Shown: positions 8,508 through 51,639, counted from the first letter of the whole stretch. The stretch is 60,144 nt of DNA, filler included, from Sphacelaria rigidula (GCA_964200075.2; 7 parts of 7 records of this genome joined end to end with filler, not necessarily neighbours in it), one strand, 5' to 3'. Notes: generated by a model not told the origin, from the letters alone. Program-made: numbers and translations.

Positions 8508-8607
8508 NNNNNNNNNNNNNNNNNNNNNNNNNNNNNNNNNNNNNNNNNNNNTTAATTAATTAANNNNNNNNNNNNNNNNNNNNNNNNNNNNNNNNNNNNN
8601 NNNNNNN
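8508..8607. other. Artificial contig spacer (44 N + TTAATTAATTAA + 44 N)
   Basis: Exact 100-nt structure with stops in all frames, repeated six times in the window. Confidence 0.99.
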
Positions 8608-17114: not shown

Positions 17115-17214
17115 NNNNNNNNNNNNNNNNNNNNNNNNNNNNNNNNNNNNNNNNNNNNTTAATTAATTAANNNNNNNNNNNNNNNNNNNNNNNNNNNNNN
17201 NNNNNNNNNNNNNN
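17115..17214. other. Artificial contig spacer
   Basis: 44 N + TTAATTAATTAA + 44 N. Confidence 0.99.
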
Positions 17215-25721: not shown

Positions 25722-25821
25722 NNNNNNNNNNNNNNNNNNNNNNNNNNNNNNNNNNNNNNNNNNNNTTAATTAATTAANNNNNNNNNNNNNNNNNNNNNNN
25801 NNNNNNNNNNNNNNNNNNNNN
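25722..25821. other. Artificial contig spacer
   Basis: 44 N + TTAATTAATTAA + 44 N. Confidence 0.99.
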
Positions 25822-26499
25822 CGTCACTGGCACACTCTTGACCGGATTACCTCGGTGTTCTGTGACGGACCAGTCGTCGCTGTTAGCGAGGATCTCCGTG
25901 TACGCACAGCGCAGTTTCGATATGTACTGTTTATTTAGCGAAGTATGTGCATACCGCCTCGCGCACCCGAGACCTAGCTCTTTGTATTGTACCAAGCTGT
26001 CTGTGCCTATCTGTGGGCATTGCAGAACGTGCACTACCTTTGTACCCGTGCCCTGCGAGTCCTTGTATGCCAGATAATCTACGACTTGCTCTGGCGTGGC
26101 ATTTTCCCATCCTACTGCGCCGCCTGAACGCTATCATACGAAACGGTCGAAATCATCTGCTACGACACTCTTACGCCTATGCCCCACTTGAGTCGCTCTT
26201 GCTGCGGCAAACGCCGCCAGCCTGTCATAAAGCAAACTGTCGTTGATATGCAATTGGGCCTCCCCTTGCGATCGCGGTGCCGGCCGCGTTAATTTGGCGG
26301 GCACACCACAGCGCTGACAAAGCCTGTAATTGCCATCATTATGCCCTAGGCATGCTCCGCACAGCACTCTAGGCACCCGATCTGCAATTCTGGTAGCGCC
26401 TTGGGGCACCCTTAGCGAGTCTGTTCCTGCCGTTATTCCTCCTCCGCCCTCTCCTATCGGCGCAAATGTCGCCACCCAGGTATCTGTGCCCTCCATCAC
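25822..26499 (-). pseudogene. Zinc-ribbon + ALOG domain (N-terminal DNA-binding part of a DIRS tyrosine recombinase)
   Basis: CGAC...CQRC ribbon, two adjacent in-frame stops (26131-26136), then VVDYLAYKDSQGTGTKVVHVLQCPQIG...CARRYAHTSL...ISKLRCAY...RGNPVKS. This resembles the ALOG consensus as I recall it (VLEFLRYLDQFGKTKVH..C...[20 protein letters not shown]...NPF). Confidence 0.82.
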
Positions 26500-26558
26500 C
26501 TAGCACAGCAGCACAGCAGCACAGAAAACCATGAAGTGACAAAGGCATAACGGGCTGA

Positions 26559-28799
26559 CTATGCCAGTCCAAAATTAAGCTCCACCACTACCATGTCCCA
26601 TTTTTCGAATACAAACGGCCTTACACCCTTTGCATGGTGCTCTGAGAAGAAATCATGCCGCTCTCCTGCCTTTGCTACCAATTTCTCCCTGACACGCGCA
26701 CTCCTTAACCCAGGATACCAAGCCCCTTTTGTCGCTGGTACCACGACCACTGCTCTAGCCCTGCACTCCTCCATTCGTTGTAACACCATCCCCACTATAC
26801 ACATGGGCGGGAAACAGAAATCAAAACCCTTCTCGCTCAAGCCCGGAATCAATGAAACATCTATTGCCGCCGCTCCCGGACATGTGCATCGCGCACAAAA
26901 CGGCAATCCACTGCCCTCTCTTGGTTGCTCTCGTGGCACCCGGTGCACTGAGACGTTTGTGGCCATGAGGTCTGCGTCAAATGCCCCGAAGAACATCCAC
27001 AAATCCGCGACAATCTCATGGCGCAACCTCACAAACTCCACCTTACCTGGTCTGGTAATAGTATCTGCTTCGCTATTTTGCGCGGATGGTACCCATTGCA
27101 ATCTTAACCAAAAATCCTCTCTCCTCTGCAGGTTATATAGATCAAGCAACAGTGCATGTGTACTGGGGTTTCTCGATCTACCTCGTGCAAAAGCATCCAC
27201 CACTGACGTATTGTCAACATCCACTAAAACCTGCGCTCCTCTAAGTCGCCCCGGCGCTCTCCTGCAAAATTCCCGCAAGACCTTAATTAGTGCGAATGCC
27301 TCCTTGGCGTTAACGTGCTGCTGTATCCATACTGGGGAAACTTCTGCGCCAGCTTGGAAAAGCTGACCGTCCACTCGCATCACACTCCCCCATGCTGCTG
27401 ACGAAGCATCCGTGGCGCCTCTCGTGACGGCCAGCGCATAGTGCTTGGTGGAATACCACGGACCCTGCTGCGAATGCTGCGTAACGCCTAACCATAGCTC
27501 TAACTCATCCCAGAGGCCGCTACCTTTCTGCACTGGGATCTCCGTCAACCATTTCCCTTCAACCTTTTTGTCGAGTGCTTGTACACCCTTAAAAATAAAG
27601 TGCGTCCACAGGGACGCCGGCCGCACCGCTACCTTCATACTCATGCACTTTCCCGCGATCTTTTGCAGCGTAGCCGCATCGACTGCCCTGTATTCCATCA
27701 CCCTCCTAATCAAGGTGCCAAGTTTGTCCAGCTTGTCCTGCGGAACACGGTACGCCGCTCGTTCACTGTCACATAAAATACCTAGGTATCGCTGCACTCT
27801 CCGCGGGACAAGATCGCACTTTTTGATGCTCAAGAAAAATCCTGCTAAGAAGGAAACAGACACCGCCAGTGCTATCACTGCTGCCGCTGCTCTCCACTGC
27901 AACTGCTCTACCTGCCCTTTTGTGTTCAACGGGCCTGTCAACCACGCGTCGTCAATATATGTAGTTGCGGGTATGCCACGCGCCCTCAAGAAATACGATC
28001 TGACTCCCGAAACTTTGTGGTAGACGCACGTGCTCTCATTCCAACCAAATGGATTTATCGTCCATACATAGTCCACTCCCTGGAATTCGACACTAAACAA
28101 CGGCCACGAGTCTGGATGCAGCATGATGTGATGAAATCCGCTTCTGTCATCTAAAGAACCCTGAAAGCATCCTTGCCATCCCATGCCCGCAATCGCACCC
28201 ACTGTGTCCATAGAGAAAGGTACATGCTTACAGTGCTCGTTAAGTGGTCTTGCATCGTATACTAGTCGCGGCTTTGTGGGCTTGACGCTCAAAGCTTGTA
28301 TAAGTCTAGGTATTTGGTCTCCTCCTGGGCCCTTAACTGTTGCCCAAGGTACTAGGCATCCCCTGCCTACCAAAGCAGTTACCTCGTCCTCTACGAAAGC
28401 GGCATGTTCTCGTGGGATCCGATTGGGAAAAACACGTCCTGGGAAAGCGTCTGGTGCGAACGGCTGGTATACTGTTTTCCCTTTTGCCCCATCGTTCAAG
28501 AAATCGAATACGCTTACCCCGTGTACAATCCATGGTACAATTTCGCCGCGGTCCGGGTGTCCTGCTAACAAAATTTTGTCCCAGAAGTCAATATGTTGTT
28601 CAAGCATCCCCGGCACGAAATTTTCGTCATCACGAAAAGCTATAGCCCACGGCGCTGTTGTCGCCGATACAAACTGCGTGCGTAAAACATCGTCTGGTGT
28701 GTGCGTCGTGCTTGCGCTTCTCTGGTGCCAACCCGCTGCCCGCGCCCATTGCTGTTCTTGCTTTGTGAGCGTTGGCGCCGGGGCGCTGATAGGCCCCAC
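26559..28799 (-). CDS. DIRS pol: reverse transcriptase + RNase H + DNA adenine-methylase-like domain (746 aa)
   Basis: RT: KPRLVYDARPLN, LDDRSGFHHI, NPFGWNES, TYIDD, QRYLGILCD. RNase H: TDASSAAWG, HVNAKE, VDN, QWVPSAQNSEAD. Methylase-like: DADLMAT...FCFPP...VVVVP...WYP. The true start codon is uncertain. Confidence 0.92.
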   Translation of the reverse strand: MGPISAPAPTLTKQEQQWARAAGWHQRSASTTHTPDDVLRTQFVSATTAPWAIAFRDDENFVPGMLEQHIDFWDKILLAGHPDRGEIVPWIVHGVSVFDFLNDGAKGKTVYQPFAPDAFPGRVFPNRIPREHAAFVEDEVTALVGRGCLVPWATVKGPGGDQIPRLIQALSVKPTKPRLVYDARPLNEHCKHVPFSMDTVGAIAGMGWQGCFQGSLDDRSGFHHIMLHPDSWPLFSVEFQGVDYVWTINPFGWNESTCVYHKVSGVRSYFLRARGIPATTYIDDAWLTGPLNTKGQVEQLQWRAAAAVIALAVSVSFLAGFFLSIKKCDLVPRRVQRYLGILCDSERAAYRVPQDKLDKLGTLIRRVMEYRAVDAATLQKIAGKCMSMKVAVRPASLWTHFIFKGVQALDKKVEGKWLTEIPVQKGSGLWDELELWLGVTQHSQQGPWYSTKHYALAVTRGATDASSAAWGSVMRVDGQLFQAGAEVSPVWIQQHVNAKEAFALIKVLREFCRRAPGRLRGAQVLVDVDNTSVVDAFARGRSRNPSTHALLLDLYNLQRREDFWLRLQWVPSAQNSEADTITRPGKVEFVRLRHEIVADLWMFFGAFDADLMATNVSVHRVPREQPREGSGLPFCARCTCPGAAAIDVSLIPGLSEKGFDFCFPPMCIVGMVLQRMEECRARAVVVVPATKGAWYPGLRSARVREKLVAKAGERHDFFSEHHAKGVRPFVFEKWDMVVVELNFGLA

Positions 28800-29647
28800 T
28801 GCACGTCTTCTGATACGTCACCCTTTCAACCAGGCCTCTGCATCCACCTATTATGTGTACATAATGCCGAGATAGCCCCCCCACGAACCGGCGAAAAAAG
28901 TGCACGGAGGACATGATCAAAAGTGCTGTTCGAGCCGGTTTCGTGCAGCACGAACCGACTCATGTGGGCATTATATCTGTTTTCGGACTGCTGTACGGCT
29001 ATCATGTGGGCGAAATTGCTGCAAACGATCCCAATAGTGTATTCGCAGCCTTGCTCCATTCTACCGCCTCTGGCAGTTCTGGTGGGATGTCCAAAACGTC
29101 TGCCATCCGGAAACCAGCATGATATAGTGATACTAGCCCGCAAGACAGTGAATTCGAGCCACTACACGGCCCCCGGTACATGTGCCTGAAGCCGATGCGA
29201 GCTGCGGTGAATTGGTCACAACCGAGTAAGAACGTTCATGCCGGTTGCATGGGATTGCGTGGGCTACGTATTTAAGATTCTAATTGAGAGGCAACATCAC
29301 ATCCTGAAAGCGCCATGTCCACGTCACGCAATCATGTCTTCGCTAACCCTTGTCAAATGTCCAAAATTGTACAAAACCCCGAGGCGTGCTGGGACGTCTC
29401 GTGAAACGAAGCAGCCTTGCTTCGTATCTTCTGCCATGCTATTCGATTGCAATATATAGTGGAGGCAACTTCCTACTCGGCGGGTGCCGTGGTGTAAAAC
29501 GCCGACCGGTTCCTGCGGGGGAATGAACCCCATGTGCCCCCCCCCCCCCCCCCCATAGAATCGGCCTGGAGATGCCGACACGCGACATCTGCGGCAACAA
29601 CGCCTACTCAGCACTGGCCGGCCCAGCTCCCTCCCCGAGTCGTACGT

Positions 29648-30109
29648 CTACTCTCTAGACCTTCCCTCTTGTTGCGCCACATTTTCACGGACAACACTCA
29701 CCGGCTTGATCCCTTCCTCCTCCTCGTGGGCGAAGCGCTCCAAGAGAACGTCTTTCAGTGGCCACTCACTGTCGCAAAGAGCCATGGCGAACACCAGCGT
29801 GACGAGGAGCGACAACTTGGGTGGATCGTTCTGCGTGCGCTCACCCCCTGGCGGTGCTAGGACGTACTTAGTCAGATATCGTTTCGTATACTCGTTAAGA
29901 TTCTTCCACATAATGTTCGCCTTCTTAGCATCCGTCTTGCTGTCCTTATCCGCCGCCCACAGGATGTCCCGCCAGTAGCGCCCCAATATGGCATCCATCT
30001 GAGCAGGTGTGCTGACGTCTGCTCTGCCACAGGCTTGTTGGATTATGGGTACCAGAACCCCAATGGCTGAGCTCATGCACGGTTTCTGCATTCGAAGACG
30101 GGCGCCCAA
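29648..30109 (-). pseudogene. Putative gag-like ORF remnant of the DIRS element
   Basis: 153-aa protein-like ORF upstream of pol on the same strand. The assignment is positional only. Confidence 0.4.
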
Positions 30110-31126
30110 TACGTAGCCCGCCCGGGTTGTGATGTCGGTATAGCCGAAATGGGTTAGCCATATGCCGCCAGTTGTTTCGCATGGCGAACGATTTCACCCC
30201 GGGGTTTCGCGGCATACGATGTCAGCAAACCGCAAGGATATTTCATCCCGGGGTTTCACATGGGGGGTATCGTTATATGCCTTTCTAGTTTATAGTTACC
30301 GAGGATTGCATTTATCCCGTCATATGACTGATTTCGGAAACCGATCAATTTCGTGCAGTATATGTGTATCGGATGATACGTGGAGATGACGGGTACGGCG
30401 ATCGCCATCGAGATGCACAACACATTCGCATTCAGTGTCAACATGGACATGTTCGTCGCAATTCCCAAACAACCCTTATGGTAAGAAACGAGTGCCATCA
30501 ACCTTCATTCGTCAAACGGTGCACATGGTTTATGTGTTGCTCATGAAATATATATAACGACACCGGTGCTTACATGATGATCCTGTTTTAGAAACACAAC
30601 TTGGTGATGCTGCATGCATCCATACCGATACACGAGTTACAATGACCTGGTGAAGTGTGACATGCCCTAGATTCGATAAACCAACTGGTTCCGTTGGGTC
30701 ATCGACAATTAGGAATCTTCGATGACGTATGATCTTGCAGACCGGTATCATCACCATATATATGGTTGGTTTCAGAAACCAGCTCGATTGTTGCGTAGAT
30801 GTCGATACATACAATTGCAATGTATATCGACGTCGAGAACACTTTAAACGAGATTTTCTCGTTTGCTTCATTCCCGGGTGTAAGACAAACCCCGGGATCA
30901 TGATGTAAAGGTTATCGTACTGTGTATTGGAAGGTTCCGCCGGTATCACAAGCATACGCGAATGTGTCGCCTGTGTCTGTGTGCTGAAAATCCGGAAGCG
31001 TTACGGTTCCGGTAAATTCGGTGTGTGACAATGGGTGCCATCATTTCACCGTGTTGCGGTGTGATATAGAAAATATGCCGTTATGTGCACGCCGCTGGTA
31101 TGAACCGTCATCGCTATGGTCAAAAT

Positions 31127-31400
31127 GAGCTGATTTTCAAAATCGGCCCATGTGTGTCACGAGTTGAATGCCTTCACGAAGCCGGTTGCGTCGAACGGTG
31201 ATTGCGTGGAGCTGGTTTTGAGAACCGGCCGATCTTGGTCACGAGTTGAGTCCCGTCACGATGCCTATGGCGTAATTGGAGCGCTTATGGATAGGTGGGT
31301 CTGAAGAAGGTCCTATGTGTGTCTAAAAATCAACCTTGCCACGAATACGGTATTGTGGTGTAGCGCTCATGACGAGCTGGTTTGGAAACCGACTCCGAGT
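31127..31400. repeat. Degenerate ~82-bp tandem repeat (about 3.3 units)
   Basis: gagctg(g/a)ttt...cacgagttga recurs at ~31127 and ~31210, and gagctggtt recurs again at ~31374. Confidence 0.55.
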
Positions 31401-31403
31401 GTG

Positions 31404-31528
31404 TTAACCCTTCTGGAGCCCATTGACGAATTCTGTTCATGTGAATCAGCATCATCTTCAGTCATTTTCAAGTCAAACTGATGCCGATTCGTAACGATAA
31501 AAATTGTCGTGTGTTCCGAAAAGTTTAA
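31404..31528. mobile_element. piggyBac-type MITE
   Basis: TTAA-CCCTT...AAAAGT-TTAA with an inverted gaatcagcatca/tgatgccgattc pair. Confidence 0.6.
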
Positions 31529-33138
31529 TCATCTCATCGTCCTCTGGGTTGTGAATATGACGTAGTGACTGCGATGCCACTGTCTGGCATGGTAGATATA
31601 ATGTGTCTCAACAGTCATTTTTTATTCGGATTATAGAATAAAAGATTCAAATATGGGATCTCATCACATGCGGAGGGTGTTCCCTGTTTGTCTCCCGAAA
31701 TTTTGCGTGATTTTATTCTTAAACTATGGTTAATTTCGTGACTACGCTGCCTCTGTCCCCTGCGCGAGTACTGGCCCGAACGCCGTCCTGGGAAAGGGTG
31801 TGGGTTGGGGCTTGTAAATGGCAACACGCATCCTGGGGTAGTTGCGCGTCGTGTGCTACTACGATGGGGGTTGCACTTGAGCGACGGAAATGTTTGTCGG
31901 GTGTTGCATGGGTCATTTTGGGAATCGACATCACTTTCCCTTGCAGAAGGTCGAAGACGTGGCACATTCGCGACAAGGCCCCTTCGTGTATCTCCAGCTC
32001 CGATGCCCGGATACTTGGGTGATACAGTGCGCTGCGATGATGTTCCGTCAATCAATGGTCCCCCGTGCAATGTGATATCTCAACGGGTAATTTTTTAATG
32101 GAACTCGCCTTCGATAGTTTTTTGGATGCATGTTGGTCATGACCTATCTGTCGCGCTTTTTCGTTCGGCATCGCGTCGTACACCCGCACGGAAATCCTGG
32201 GGTGGTCGCTCCCTGATGTGGTGTCCATGGCCCTTTTCAACCCCTCCATCTCTGCCTCCGCGAGGGAAACGTCCGCACGGAACACGACAGACAGTACCCA
32301 CAAGAACGATAGTCAGGGCTTGTATGCGAGTACTGGTGGCTACATTCGTGATCGGCTGGGTGCAAATAACATGTGCACTTGAACTGTTAGCAGTCGTCAT
32401 GTCTCCGTGAATGTTATCTTCCTTCACAGAACCGCTAAACAAAAAGAAGAGATTGCGCTGGTCGCGTGCGGCTTTGTAATCATTTGTGCGTACCTTCTGT
32501 GCTCGGCGGTGTCGCCCCATCGAGAACTCCAGCACAGTACCGCCCGAGGTTGAGCTCGTCGGCGTATATCATCATGAAGAGGGCGCTTCTTGTTTGCTCT
32601 TGGATTGAGATGAAGCATGGTTTGTCCTTTATGAAATTTGGTGTGGGGCGCCCGAACCGTTCCTTGTCCTGAATAGACCATACGTTGGTATCGCACACAA
32701 CATACCAATCTTGATACATGAGAAGGCGTGGGCGATACGAATGACCCCCTCTCTTTCTAGGCCCCTGTCAGACTCTTGCTCGCACCCTCACGACCCAGTA
32801 GCACCAGATGCATCGCTGAATGTCATTCTTCCCGCGTCGTAACACTACGAGCTGAGCCAGCCAACACCAGGTAGTTTGCTCGCTCAGGCGACGCATTGCG
32901 TCAAATTATGAGTTGGCCGCTGCTTTTTCGACAACGGCTTCTTATGGTCGACATGCAAAATATTTCGGGAGCAGGGTAGGAAAAAGACAGAACAGCAGGA
33001 AATGGGGTTTTGAATGTCGGTAAAATCAAGATAACTTCGTAACCCCAGTAAAACACATGATATTATGCGGCTGATGTCTCAGTGTTTGCTTCTATGATTT
33101 CAGAAACTGTGCGTGAAATTCCGGCTCGAGACTCGTCG

Positions 33139-33244
33139 CACAGGTCACACGGCGGTGCCGACATCATTCAAGTGGCACAGGAGACTCCAGTCACAGGTCA
33201 CACGGCGGTGCCGACATCATTCAAGTGGCACAGGAGACTCCAGT
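33139..33244. repeat. Perfect 53-bp tandem duplication
   Basis: cacaggtcacacggcggtgccgacatcattcaagtggcacaggagactccagt occurs twice. Confidence 0.95.
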
Positions 33245-33457
33245 GACTCGTGGAGGTCACGGTATTTTTAATTCGCTTTTTTTAGTCCGTCGTTGACATA
33301 TCGTAGACTACGCAGAGCATCTATTTTCTTCTTTTTTTCTTCGTTCACCGGCCTCGCCGTGTGCTACGCTGTTAGTCTGCATTCAGCAGAGTTGTGCTCG
33401 TATCGGGTTGATTCGGGAAAGTGGGAAAGCTGAAGTGTAAACAACGTTTGGGCGCTT

Positions 33458-33776
33458 TTAACCCTTTGACCGCGAGAGTAGGTCATCCGCTGAGTCTGCA
33501 TCGGTGTTTCCTGGGGAAAGGATTCGTGCTCGAGGTCGACCATGCGCGCCGCGGACGAACAGTGAACCCTTAGACCGCAAGATTAGTGTTTCTGGATTAT
33601 GTACATCATTTTTTTCACTTAAAATTGATGCCGATACAACAGAAGACTAACCTCGCGGTCTAAGGGTTAACCATTGTACGGCGGTGCGGGTAGTCCATCT
33701 GCATTGTGCATACTTTTTTCAAGTGATAATTGATGCCGATTCAGCAGGTGATCTATTCTGGCGGTGAAGGGGTTAG
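33458..33776. mobile_element. Three abutting ~105-bp piggyBac-type MITEs sharing TTAA-like junctions
   Basis: Junctions TTAA 33458, TGAA 33563, TTAA 33667 and TTAG 33773, with CCC/GGG-type ends. The third unit is the reverse-complement homolog of 36130-36235. Confidence 0.75.
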
Positions 33777-34327
33777 GCTGACCCAGCTTGTGCAGTGCCT
33801 ACGTTCTCCTAACCCGTACGGTGCTACAGAGTTGCCTACGGTCTGGCAACACTCCACCATCGCGGCGGCTCTCACCCACATAATGCAGCGCACAACTGCT
33901 TCCCATGGTATCATGTTAGACCTCAAGAGTTCCGTCACCCCGAGGTCGTAGCTCTCTAGTGCTTCTGTGCGGCACCTCTCCTGGATTTGGTGTTAAAGGT
34001 CAACAACGTTCCAGCATGCAATAGTGAAGTGATACATGAGACTGTCGGATCGATGATGGATTCAGTCTCGTCAGCCAACGGCTGTTTGAGGTATTTGCAA
34101 AAAAAAGTACTCACGTCTGTGTCGATGAAGAGGTGGTAGAGGTGTAATGCGTGAGAGGACGGCGTGCTTAGAGGACCGCGCCGTAGTTCGAAACTCCCTA
34201 GGATCGACGTTTTTCAAAACCAATCGGGTCAGTCCCTGCAGGTACCACGCCCCTGATCCTGACCCCAACACTAACCCTCACCCTAACGCGAACCATAGGG
34301 GTGTTCAAATTCCGATGCGGTCCTCTA

Positions 34328-34427
34328 NNNNNNNNNNNNNNNNNNNNNNNNNNNNNNNNNNNNNNNNNNNNTTAATTAATTAANNNNNNNNNNNNNNNNN
34401 NNNNNNNNNNNNNNNNNNNNNNNNNNN
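34328..34427. other. Artificial contig spacer
   Basis: 44 N + TTAATTAATTAA + 44 N. Confidence 0.99.
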
Positions 34428-42933: not shown

Positions 42934-43033
42934 NNNNNNNNNNNNNNNNNNNNNNNNNNNNNNNNNNNNNNNNNNNNTTAATTAATTAANNNNNNNNNNN
43001 NNNNNNNNNNNNNNNNNNNNNNNNNNNNNNNNN
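42934..43033. other. Artificial contig spacer
   Basis: 44 N + TTAATTAATTAA + 44 N. Confidence 0.99.
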
Positions 43034-51539: not shown

Positions 51540-51639
51540 NNNNNNNNNNNNNNNNNNNNNNNNNNNNNNNNNNNNNNNNNNNNTTAATTAATTAANNNNN
51601 NNNNNNNNNNNNNNNNNNNNNNNNNNNNNNNNNNNNNNN
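51540..51639. other. Artificial contig spacer
   Basis: 44 N + TTAATTAATTAA + 44 N. Confidence 0.99.

Follow-up and report, generated by a model that had tools for sequence, protein, structure and literature searches.

We read this region as very probably the 3' part of a single degenerate retrotransposon copy of the ALOG type and the DIRS (tyrosine-recombinase) order, from a host that is probably a brown alga. Two traits of the DIRS order can be read from it. A reverse transcriptase gene is present in the window (the whole 60,144-nucleotide stretch of DNA analysed here), and the N-terminus of a recombinase, co-oriented with pol, follows 62 nt after it. The window consists of seven pieces of ~8.5 kb separated by six N44-TTAATTAATTAA-N44 linkers (8508-8607, 17115-17214, 25722-25821, 34328-34427, 42934-43033 and 51540-51639), all of them artificial, and adjoining pieces are not necessarily neighbours in the genome. 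The ALOG/pol region lies in piece 4 (25822-34327), at its low-coordinate end, and the end at 25822, taken for a contig end in the initial annotation, is therefore a linker. When pol, the recombinase open reading frame (ORF) and piece 4 were used as tblastn and blastn queries for further copies within the window, only self-matches and short unrelated repeats were returned. The features of the region are listed below, from low to high coordinates.

25722-25821, no strand: artificial linker at which the piece ends, no biological boundary
25822-26190, minus strand: DNA-binding domain of ALOG type, read-through residues ~104-226 (Pfam PF04852 and family profile)
25978-25989, minus strand: QYKE, with Tyr at the third ligand position of the zinc insert (alignment A1)
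26136-26134 and 26133-26131, minus strand: adjacent in-frame stops TGA and TAG, codons 122-123, between ALOG helices 1 and 2
26137-26496, minus strand: first piece of the recombinase ORF, from the ATG at 26496 to the codon before the stops (ORF reading)
26361-26308, minus strand: N-terminal zinc ribbon C47-G-A-C50 ... C61-Q-R-C64, CxxC-x10-CxxC (motif)
26497-26558, minus strand: 62-nt spacer from pol to the recombinase ORF, which is in a different frame from pol
26561-26559, minus strand: TAG stop codon of pol (read directly)
26562-26978, minus strand: C-terminal domain of pol, motifs DADLMAT and CFPP (columns conserved in alignment A3)
27048-27413, minus strand: putative RNase H-like segment, TDASS ... 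KE ... DVDN ... ADTITRP (motifs in invariant A3 columns)
27777-28157, minus strand: reverse transcriptase core, the RVT_1 stretch, residues 221-347 (Pfam RVT_1, E 4e-4)
27948-27959, minus strand: YIDD box (motif)
28817-26562, minus strand: pol ORF, 752 codons with 0 internal stops (ORF reading)
28820-28818, minus strand: TGA preceding the pol ORF (read directly)

Proteins of 737-779 aa share 42-52% identity with the pol ORF over 95-100% of its length, and one pol relative carries the name Laminaria digitata. In the window's pol ORF no ATG occurs before codon 71, and in alignment A3 this ORF is without the first ~20-35 residues that are present in relatives. The initial annotation had placed the ALOG ORF in a DIRS retroelement, directly after pol, and the properties of the pol ORF agree with this. 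Pfam RVT_1 matches it with an E-value of 4e-4 (20.6 bits, below the cut-off of 29.6), the YIDD box is present, and the pol family profile built from A3 matches the solved reverse transcriptases of foamy virus, CaMV, MMLV and Ty3 in the PDB at E-values of 1.8e-6 to 2e-3. Downstream of the reverse transcriptase core, we infer an RNase H-like segment from motifs alone, with no profile match. The C-terminal domain of the window's pol sits at the place where DIRS-type pol proteins are described, in the available text of the sources, as carrying a methylase-like domain ('inactive adenine methylase'; PMC3537659; PMC3266345). It is a putative counterpart whose identity is taken from that literature, and no profile match to a methylase-like domain was obtained in Pfam or the PDB. 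The Pfam search of the pol ORF gave no integrase match, and thus no sign of a DDE integrase.

At the 5' end of pol, one sister contig from run X4 joins position 28787 to 28820 with a single different letter between them, so that relative to that copy the window has 32 nt (28788-28819) at the very start of the pol ORF. These 32 nt adjoin the TGA that precedes the ORF. The listed sister-contig pieces end near 28787.

The recombinase ORF begins behind pol and is split by two stops. As stop-to-stop ORFs, its halves are 26134-26499 (121 aa) and 25774-26130 (118 aa, including translated N), and it is as two such pieces that the ORF list had presented the peptide according to the initial annotation. 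The same annotation had noted a CxxC...CxxC ribbon directly after pol, which we find in the ORF that opens 62 nt behind the pol stop, with C47-C64 encoded at 26361-26308. In Pfam the ribbon of the window scores weakly (zf_C2H2_13, 0.003; DZR_2, 0.053). Its four cysteines are kept in relatives, and the relatives match the DZR, DUF7575 and DUF7577 ribbons. A linker of ~50 residues lies between the ribbon and FDRFV. Translation through TGA TAG (26131-26136) gives the ALOG pattern that had been proposed from the sequence (VVDYL, GTGTKVVH, HVLQC, CARR, SKLR, GNPV); after the stops the full order is VVDYL, GTGTKVVH, HVLQC, QYKELGLGCARR, SKLR and GNPVKSVPVT, where the piece ends.

These elements can be assigned to parts of the ALOG domain. 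FDRFV corresponds to helix 1, VVDYL to helix 2, HVLQC ... QYKELGLGC to the zinc insert and SKLR to helix 3, followed by GNP. The [FY][LMV] signatures are present as FV at residues 120-121 in helix 1 and YL at residues 142-143 in helix 2, as are the basic residue after the insert (CARR) and the +xR motif of helix 3 (SKLR). The conserved Asp of helix 3 is replaced by Asn in the window and in close sisters. The domain of the window is cut before helix 4; sister copies continue as EYLAFSAAEQQKAGV, which is ALOG helix 4.

Support for the ALOG assignment from Pfam is borderline. On the 103-aa piece after the stops, ALOG_dom reaches an E-value of 9.9e-6 and 26.2 bits against a cut-off of 26.6, and on the read-through with X at both stops it reaches 3e-5 and 24.6 bits against the same cut-off. 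We also built a profile (A2) from 17 full-length or nearly full-length relatives, with the window left out. This profile matches the read-through of the window with an E-value of 6.2e-63 over profile positions 3-186, aligned without frame change across both stops. In the PDB, it matches the ALOG domain of Arabidopsis LSH3 (8p5q) with an E-value of 2.2e-16 over profile positions 67-201, and the Cre and Tre recombinases with E-values of 1.2e-9 to 1.2e-7, with KT, HSxRxG, GW and the nucleophile Y aligned. Used alone as a query, the window read-through matched no solved structure in the PDB, and when longer proteins were sought with it in a word-indexed search, 2331 candidates came up, of which 0 were significant. 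By sequence comparison, the match of the window peptide to ALOG is beyond chance, and the domain type named in the initial annotation stands.

The published ALOG CxC motif is absent from the window, and HxxxC is present as HVLQC. The insert of the brown-algal clade has C-x6-C (QCKELGLGC) in place of CxC, and the window itself has Y-x6-C. The third ligand of the zinc insert, Tyr in the window, is Cys (QCKE or QCKD) in three of four close sisters and His in the other one, so that the window copy retains three of the four ligands. The C-x6-C arrangement adds a clade-specific variant of the ALOG zinc insert.

Among 1.84 billion representative proteins, a phmmer search gave 194 matches with E-values of at most 1e-3, 62 of at most 1e-10 and four of at most 1e-30. 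The nearest proteins are labelled 'unnamed protein product, partial [Sphacelaria rigidula]'. In alignment A1, identity to the window is 94% for P0168, 91% for P0171, 87% for P0003 and 84% for P0002. From the 150 listed matches we scanned 31 with Pfam, namely the four best and longer ones. In these chosen relatives, ALOG_dom was found with E-values of at most 0.01 in 21 of the 31, 16 of which lie above the cut-off with up to 112.8 bits; Phage_integrase (PF00589) was found at the same threshold in nine, none of them above the cut-off, and seven gave no Pfam family.

Two of the closest sisters extend beyond the point at which the window copy is cut. P0003 and P0168 run past the cut at 25822 through EYLAFSAAEQQKAGV into RD.ALFTVA....GRGGDL, FTKTLR and HSFRVG. 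P0168 additionally has GWK...SRY, which gives the set R-K-H-R-W-Y, aligning with Cre, and reaches 26.1 bits with Phage_integrase (E 8.5e-6; cut-off 27.1). A more distant relative, P0170 (505 aa, 44% identical), scores 34.1 bits with Phage_integrase and 30.9 bits with ALOG, both above the Pfam cut-offs; its cluster at 90% comprises 37 proteins, and of the 15 listed, 14 have a length of 505 aa. Clusters sibling to that of P0170 include proteins named Ascophyllum nodosum, and the nearest relatives of the window element are brown-algal (Sphacelaria, Ascophyllum, Laminaria). Since sister copies continue into it, a catalytic domain probably lies beyond the cut in the window copy too. The initial annotation had placed this domain beyond the contig end and had suggested that sister copies be searched for the recombinase residues. 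The residues are found in P0168 and the extension in P0003 and P0168; the part of the claim that does not hold is the contig end, which is an artificial linker.

The relatives also include a cluster around P0072 with 35 members, mostly of 269-274 aa, that carry the ribbon and an ALOG match of 97 bits. Proteins of this cluster stop at the first catalytic-domain motif (ARDAAFFCVDFF), and one of 418 aa, P0162, runs on into the recombinase. The members look like recombinases that were truncated repeatedly, and not like solo ALOG genes.

The gene order seen in the window recurs in distant loci. Searched with the pol alignment, metagenome contigs yielded 12 loci of 29-31% identity, eight of which reach more than 1 kb past the pol match; the other four end at or within ~200 nt of pol. 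In seven of the eight (L003, L004, L005, L006, L010, L011 and L012), a ribbon-ALOG-recombinase ORF (profile positions 3-447) lies behind pol, split in two in L012. L001 has no recombinase ORF, though it reaches more than 1 kb behind the pol match. Given these seven of eight loci, the order pol then recombinase is a trait of the family.

Four of the loci (L003, L006, L010 and L011; 6573-6659 nt) carry the same 121-200 nt at both ends, with a spacing of 6331-6538 nt, and between them the arrangement of the ORFs differs by circular permutation. They could be tandem copies, circular DNA or assembly loops. Their unit is ~6.4 kb long and holds upstream ORFs, pol and the ZnR-ALOG-recombinase.

The two stops in the window lie at a site at which the sister proteins have sense residues, RQ in P0171 and P0168 and HQ in P0002. 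We aligned the contigs of four public runs (X1, X3, X4 and X6) to piece 4 at a likeness of at least 80%. Position 26133 is G on the plus strand in every covering contig (7, 9, 6 and 2 in X1, X3, X4 and X6), and position 26136 is G on the plus strand in 6, 8, 6 and 2 contigs of the same runs. As each of these positions holds the first letter of one of the two codons, the reading of the family is CGA CAG. With sense codons in the sisters and RQ or HQ in their proteins, the stops of the window are derived, by two C-to-T changes, and are not a conserved feature. The change from CGA CAG to TGA TAG leaves the recombinase ORF untranslatable past codon 121. A reading of GTATGATAGCGTTCAG as a tiny intron was dropped, since the frame continues unchanged through the stops and the sister copies carry sense codons at the site. 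Among the listed runs that contain parts of the stretch, none is recorded as RNA; X6-X9 are guessed to be RNA, and contigs of X6 cover parts of the element.

The stops are accompanied by other differences from the family. Among the best-supported 40 of 1530 places, 15 (between 25958 and 28377) lie in the element and have a window letter that all or most of the sister contigs do not share. At ten of these 15 the window has A or T and the family G or C, which indicates an excess of GC-to-AT transitions in the lineage of the window copy. Judged from its sequence, this copy is decaying and dead, without a functional recombinase.

This conclusion presupposes that the stops exist in the genome and act as stops. 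The double stop could instead be an artefact of assembly or consensus, or reflect a mosaic in the source assembly, and the recombinase ORF of the underlying copy would then be open. In favour of an artefact, the window letter at 26133 occurs in no contig of X1, X3, X4 or X6, the letter at 26136 is kept only by a minority of the depth (50.5 of 711.7 in X1 and 9.9 of 146.1 in X3), and the runs contain at most 0.59 of the sampled words of the stretch. However, rare variants are lost from Logan contigs, and repeat copies that have diverged assemble poorly. The window also has other private differences from all sisters, such as that at 25958 and the Tyr for Cys at 25978-25989, as in a decaying copy, and two specific C-to-T changes are ordinary mutations. 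We therefore regard an artefact as improbable. That the stops are read through or recoded, by programmed readthrough or a variant genetic code, and that the ORF is functional as it is, would agree with the preservation of the reading frame across them. But the adjoining 752-codon pol ORF has no TGA, TAG or TAA inside and itself ends at TAG, and the sister copies carry CGA CAG at the site, with RQ or HQ in their proteins. We attach practically no likelihood to such recoding.

A different objection is that the ALOG piece does not belong to a transposon but is a domesticated gene of the host, which codes for a DNA-binding protein of ZnR and ALOG alone. Such an origin has been raised for solo ALOG ORFs in the retroposon remnants of Nematostella (PMC3537659) and has its parallel in plants, and many of the database relatives are short. 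The short relatives that we inspected, those of the P0072 cluster, are truncated recombinases, however, and the 418-aa member has the catalytic domain, as do the closest relatives of the window, which continue into it. The position of the region 62 nt behind the pol ORF on the same strand, the two stops that interrupt the ORF and the loss of one zinc ligand also argue against a host gene. Each run further contains ~6-11 diverged sister contigs, as expected for a repeat family. We consider a domesticated gene very unlikely and retain the reading of a degenerate retrotransposon copy.

Upstream of pol, none of six ORFs matched a Pfam family at a meaningful E-value, and a search of this sequence for CCHC-like patterns found no zinc knuckle. 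Gag proteins diverge fast, and the failure to find gag upstream of pol is for this reason weak evidence. One 181-aa stop-to-stop ORF on the minus strand (29648-30193) reads like protein and has an internal ATG near 29997. It matches no Pfam family and has no usable match in the Atlas; it may belong to the element as a 5' ORF or have no connection with it. A run of ~16 G lies on the minus strand at 29545-29560, between this ORF and pol.

Terminal repeats, which in the DIRS order take the form of ITR plus ICR or of split direct repeats, with no target-site duplication, were sought over 25822-34327, and only short local repeats unrelated to the element were found; the element's 3' end lies outside the piece. 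Several short segments of piece 4 (28662-29229, 31218-31501, 33206-33773 and 34058-34327) exceed the sequence around them in summed contig depth by a factor of 10 to 1000 in all four runs and show numerous joints and changes of strand, and an imperfect inverted repeat is formed by 33533-33590 and 33643-33700. The high-depth segments look like very high-copy small repeats (MITE-like) that are unrelated to the DIRS element.

For an intact element of this type, the following cycle can be proposed. The element would be transcribed, and pol, with its reverse transcriptase, RNase H and methylase-like domain, would copy the RNA into DNA, with a circular intermediate being formed. The downstream ORF would supply the recombinase, composed of an N-terminal zinc ribbon, a four-helix ALOG domain that carries a zinc insert, and a catalytic domain of the Cre/XerD type. 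Like the N-domains of Cre and XerD, ribbon and ALOG domain would bind the DNA of the element ends in the major groove, and the recombinase would recombine the circle into the chromosome. Both this transposition mechanism and the DNA that the ALOG domain would target are deduced from relatives and the literature on DIRS elements.

The class to which we assign the region was described by Iyer and Aravind in 2012 as comprising gag with a zinc knuckle, reverse transcriptase and RNase H, an adenine methylase that is inactive, and a ZnR-ALOG-tyrosine recombinase (PMC3537659). They reported an intact ALOG element of ~9 kb in the brown alga Ectocarpus siliculosus, with fast-evolving 5' ORFs and 159-bp terminal direct repeats, and decayed copies in several marine metazoans (PMC3537659). 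The window agrees with the published description of the Ectocarpus element in every part that is present, and its host too is probably a brown alga, to judge by the names of the nearest proteins. The comparison is with the element as described in print, from which the window copy differs in being cut and stop-bearing. The published insert is HxxxC...CxC, whereas the clade of the window has HxxxC...C-x6-C. The class, its architecture and its link to the plant ALOG/LSH genes have thus been in print since 2012 (PMC3537659). A 2025 census of Ectocarpus transposable elements lists, in the available text, DIRS/Ngaro and DIRS/PAT-like families, and the word ALOG occurs 0 times in its main text. The initial annotation had called the class known but rarely annotated, which is in keeping with these reports; its suggestion that the lineage may be undescribed is weakened, as the relatives are brown-algal and an intact element has already been described in Ectocarpus. 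Our analysis adds a brown-algal lineage of ALOG elements outside Ectocarpus and, resting as it does on an incomplete dead copy of a known element class, leaves the published picture unchanged.

With PAT-like and DIRS1-like elements, as far as these are covered in the available text of PMC3266345, the region shares the combination of reverse transcriptase/RNase H and methylase-like domain, and the use of a tyrosine recombinase instead of a DDE integrase. In DIRS1-like elements the order is given there as GAG-YR-pol, with YR before or often overlapping pol (Piednoel et al. 2011, PMC3266345). In contrast to DIRS1-like elements in the strict sense, the recombinase of the window starts after the pol stop with a gap of 62 nt, and it is likewise found behind pol in the seven distant loci. 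A zinc insert of the ALOG type is not among the features that the same text reports for PAT-like and DIRS1-like recombinases (PMC3266345).

The ALOG region is homologous to the four-helix DNA-binding domain with zinc insert of the plant ALOG/LSH proteins (PF04852; 8p5q). Unlike it, the plant proteins are solo domains without ribbon, recombinase or pol. Against the plant-based Pfam ALOG model the brown-algal clade, a distant branch, scores 18-34 bits, and some unnamed and metazoan relatives (for example P0117, P0134 and P0122 from Branchiostoma) score 80-113 bits, so that other relatives stand nearer to the plant genes than the brown-algal clade does. In the family, the catalytic domain can be aligned with Cre residues 106-329, including K, HxxR, W and Y (E 1.2e-9). 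Cre is a prokaryotic/phage enzyme, however, whose plain helical N-domain has neither a zinc ribbon nor a zinc insert, and the window contains none of the catalytic domain.

We tentatively raise the possibility, to which we lean slightly less than to its opposite, that the brown-algal ALOG elements form a distinct, still active subgroup apart from the versions described in 2012, and that the wider family is far more widespread than the 2012 survey indicated. The proposed subgroup would be marked by the C-x6-C insert, the position of the recombinase after pol and dozens of 505-aa ORFs in Ascophyllum-like assemblies. The wider family comprises 194 representative clusters at 50% identity, many of them from metagenome and run assemblies, among which are whole units of ~6.4 kb in circular permutation. 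If this proposal were true, an intact brown-algal copy would offer a living system for testing which DNA is recognised by the ancestral ALOG domain.
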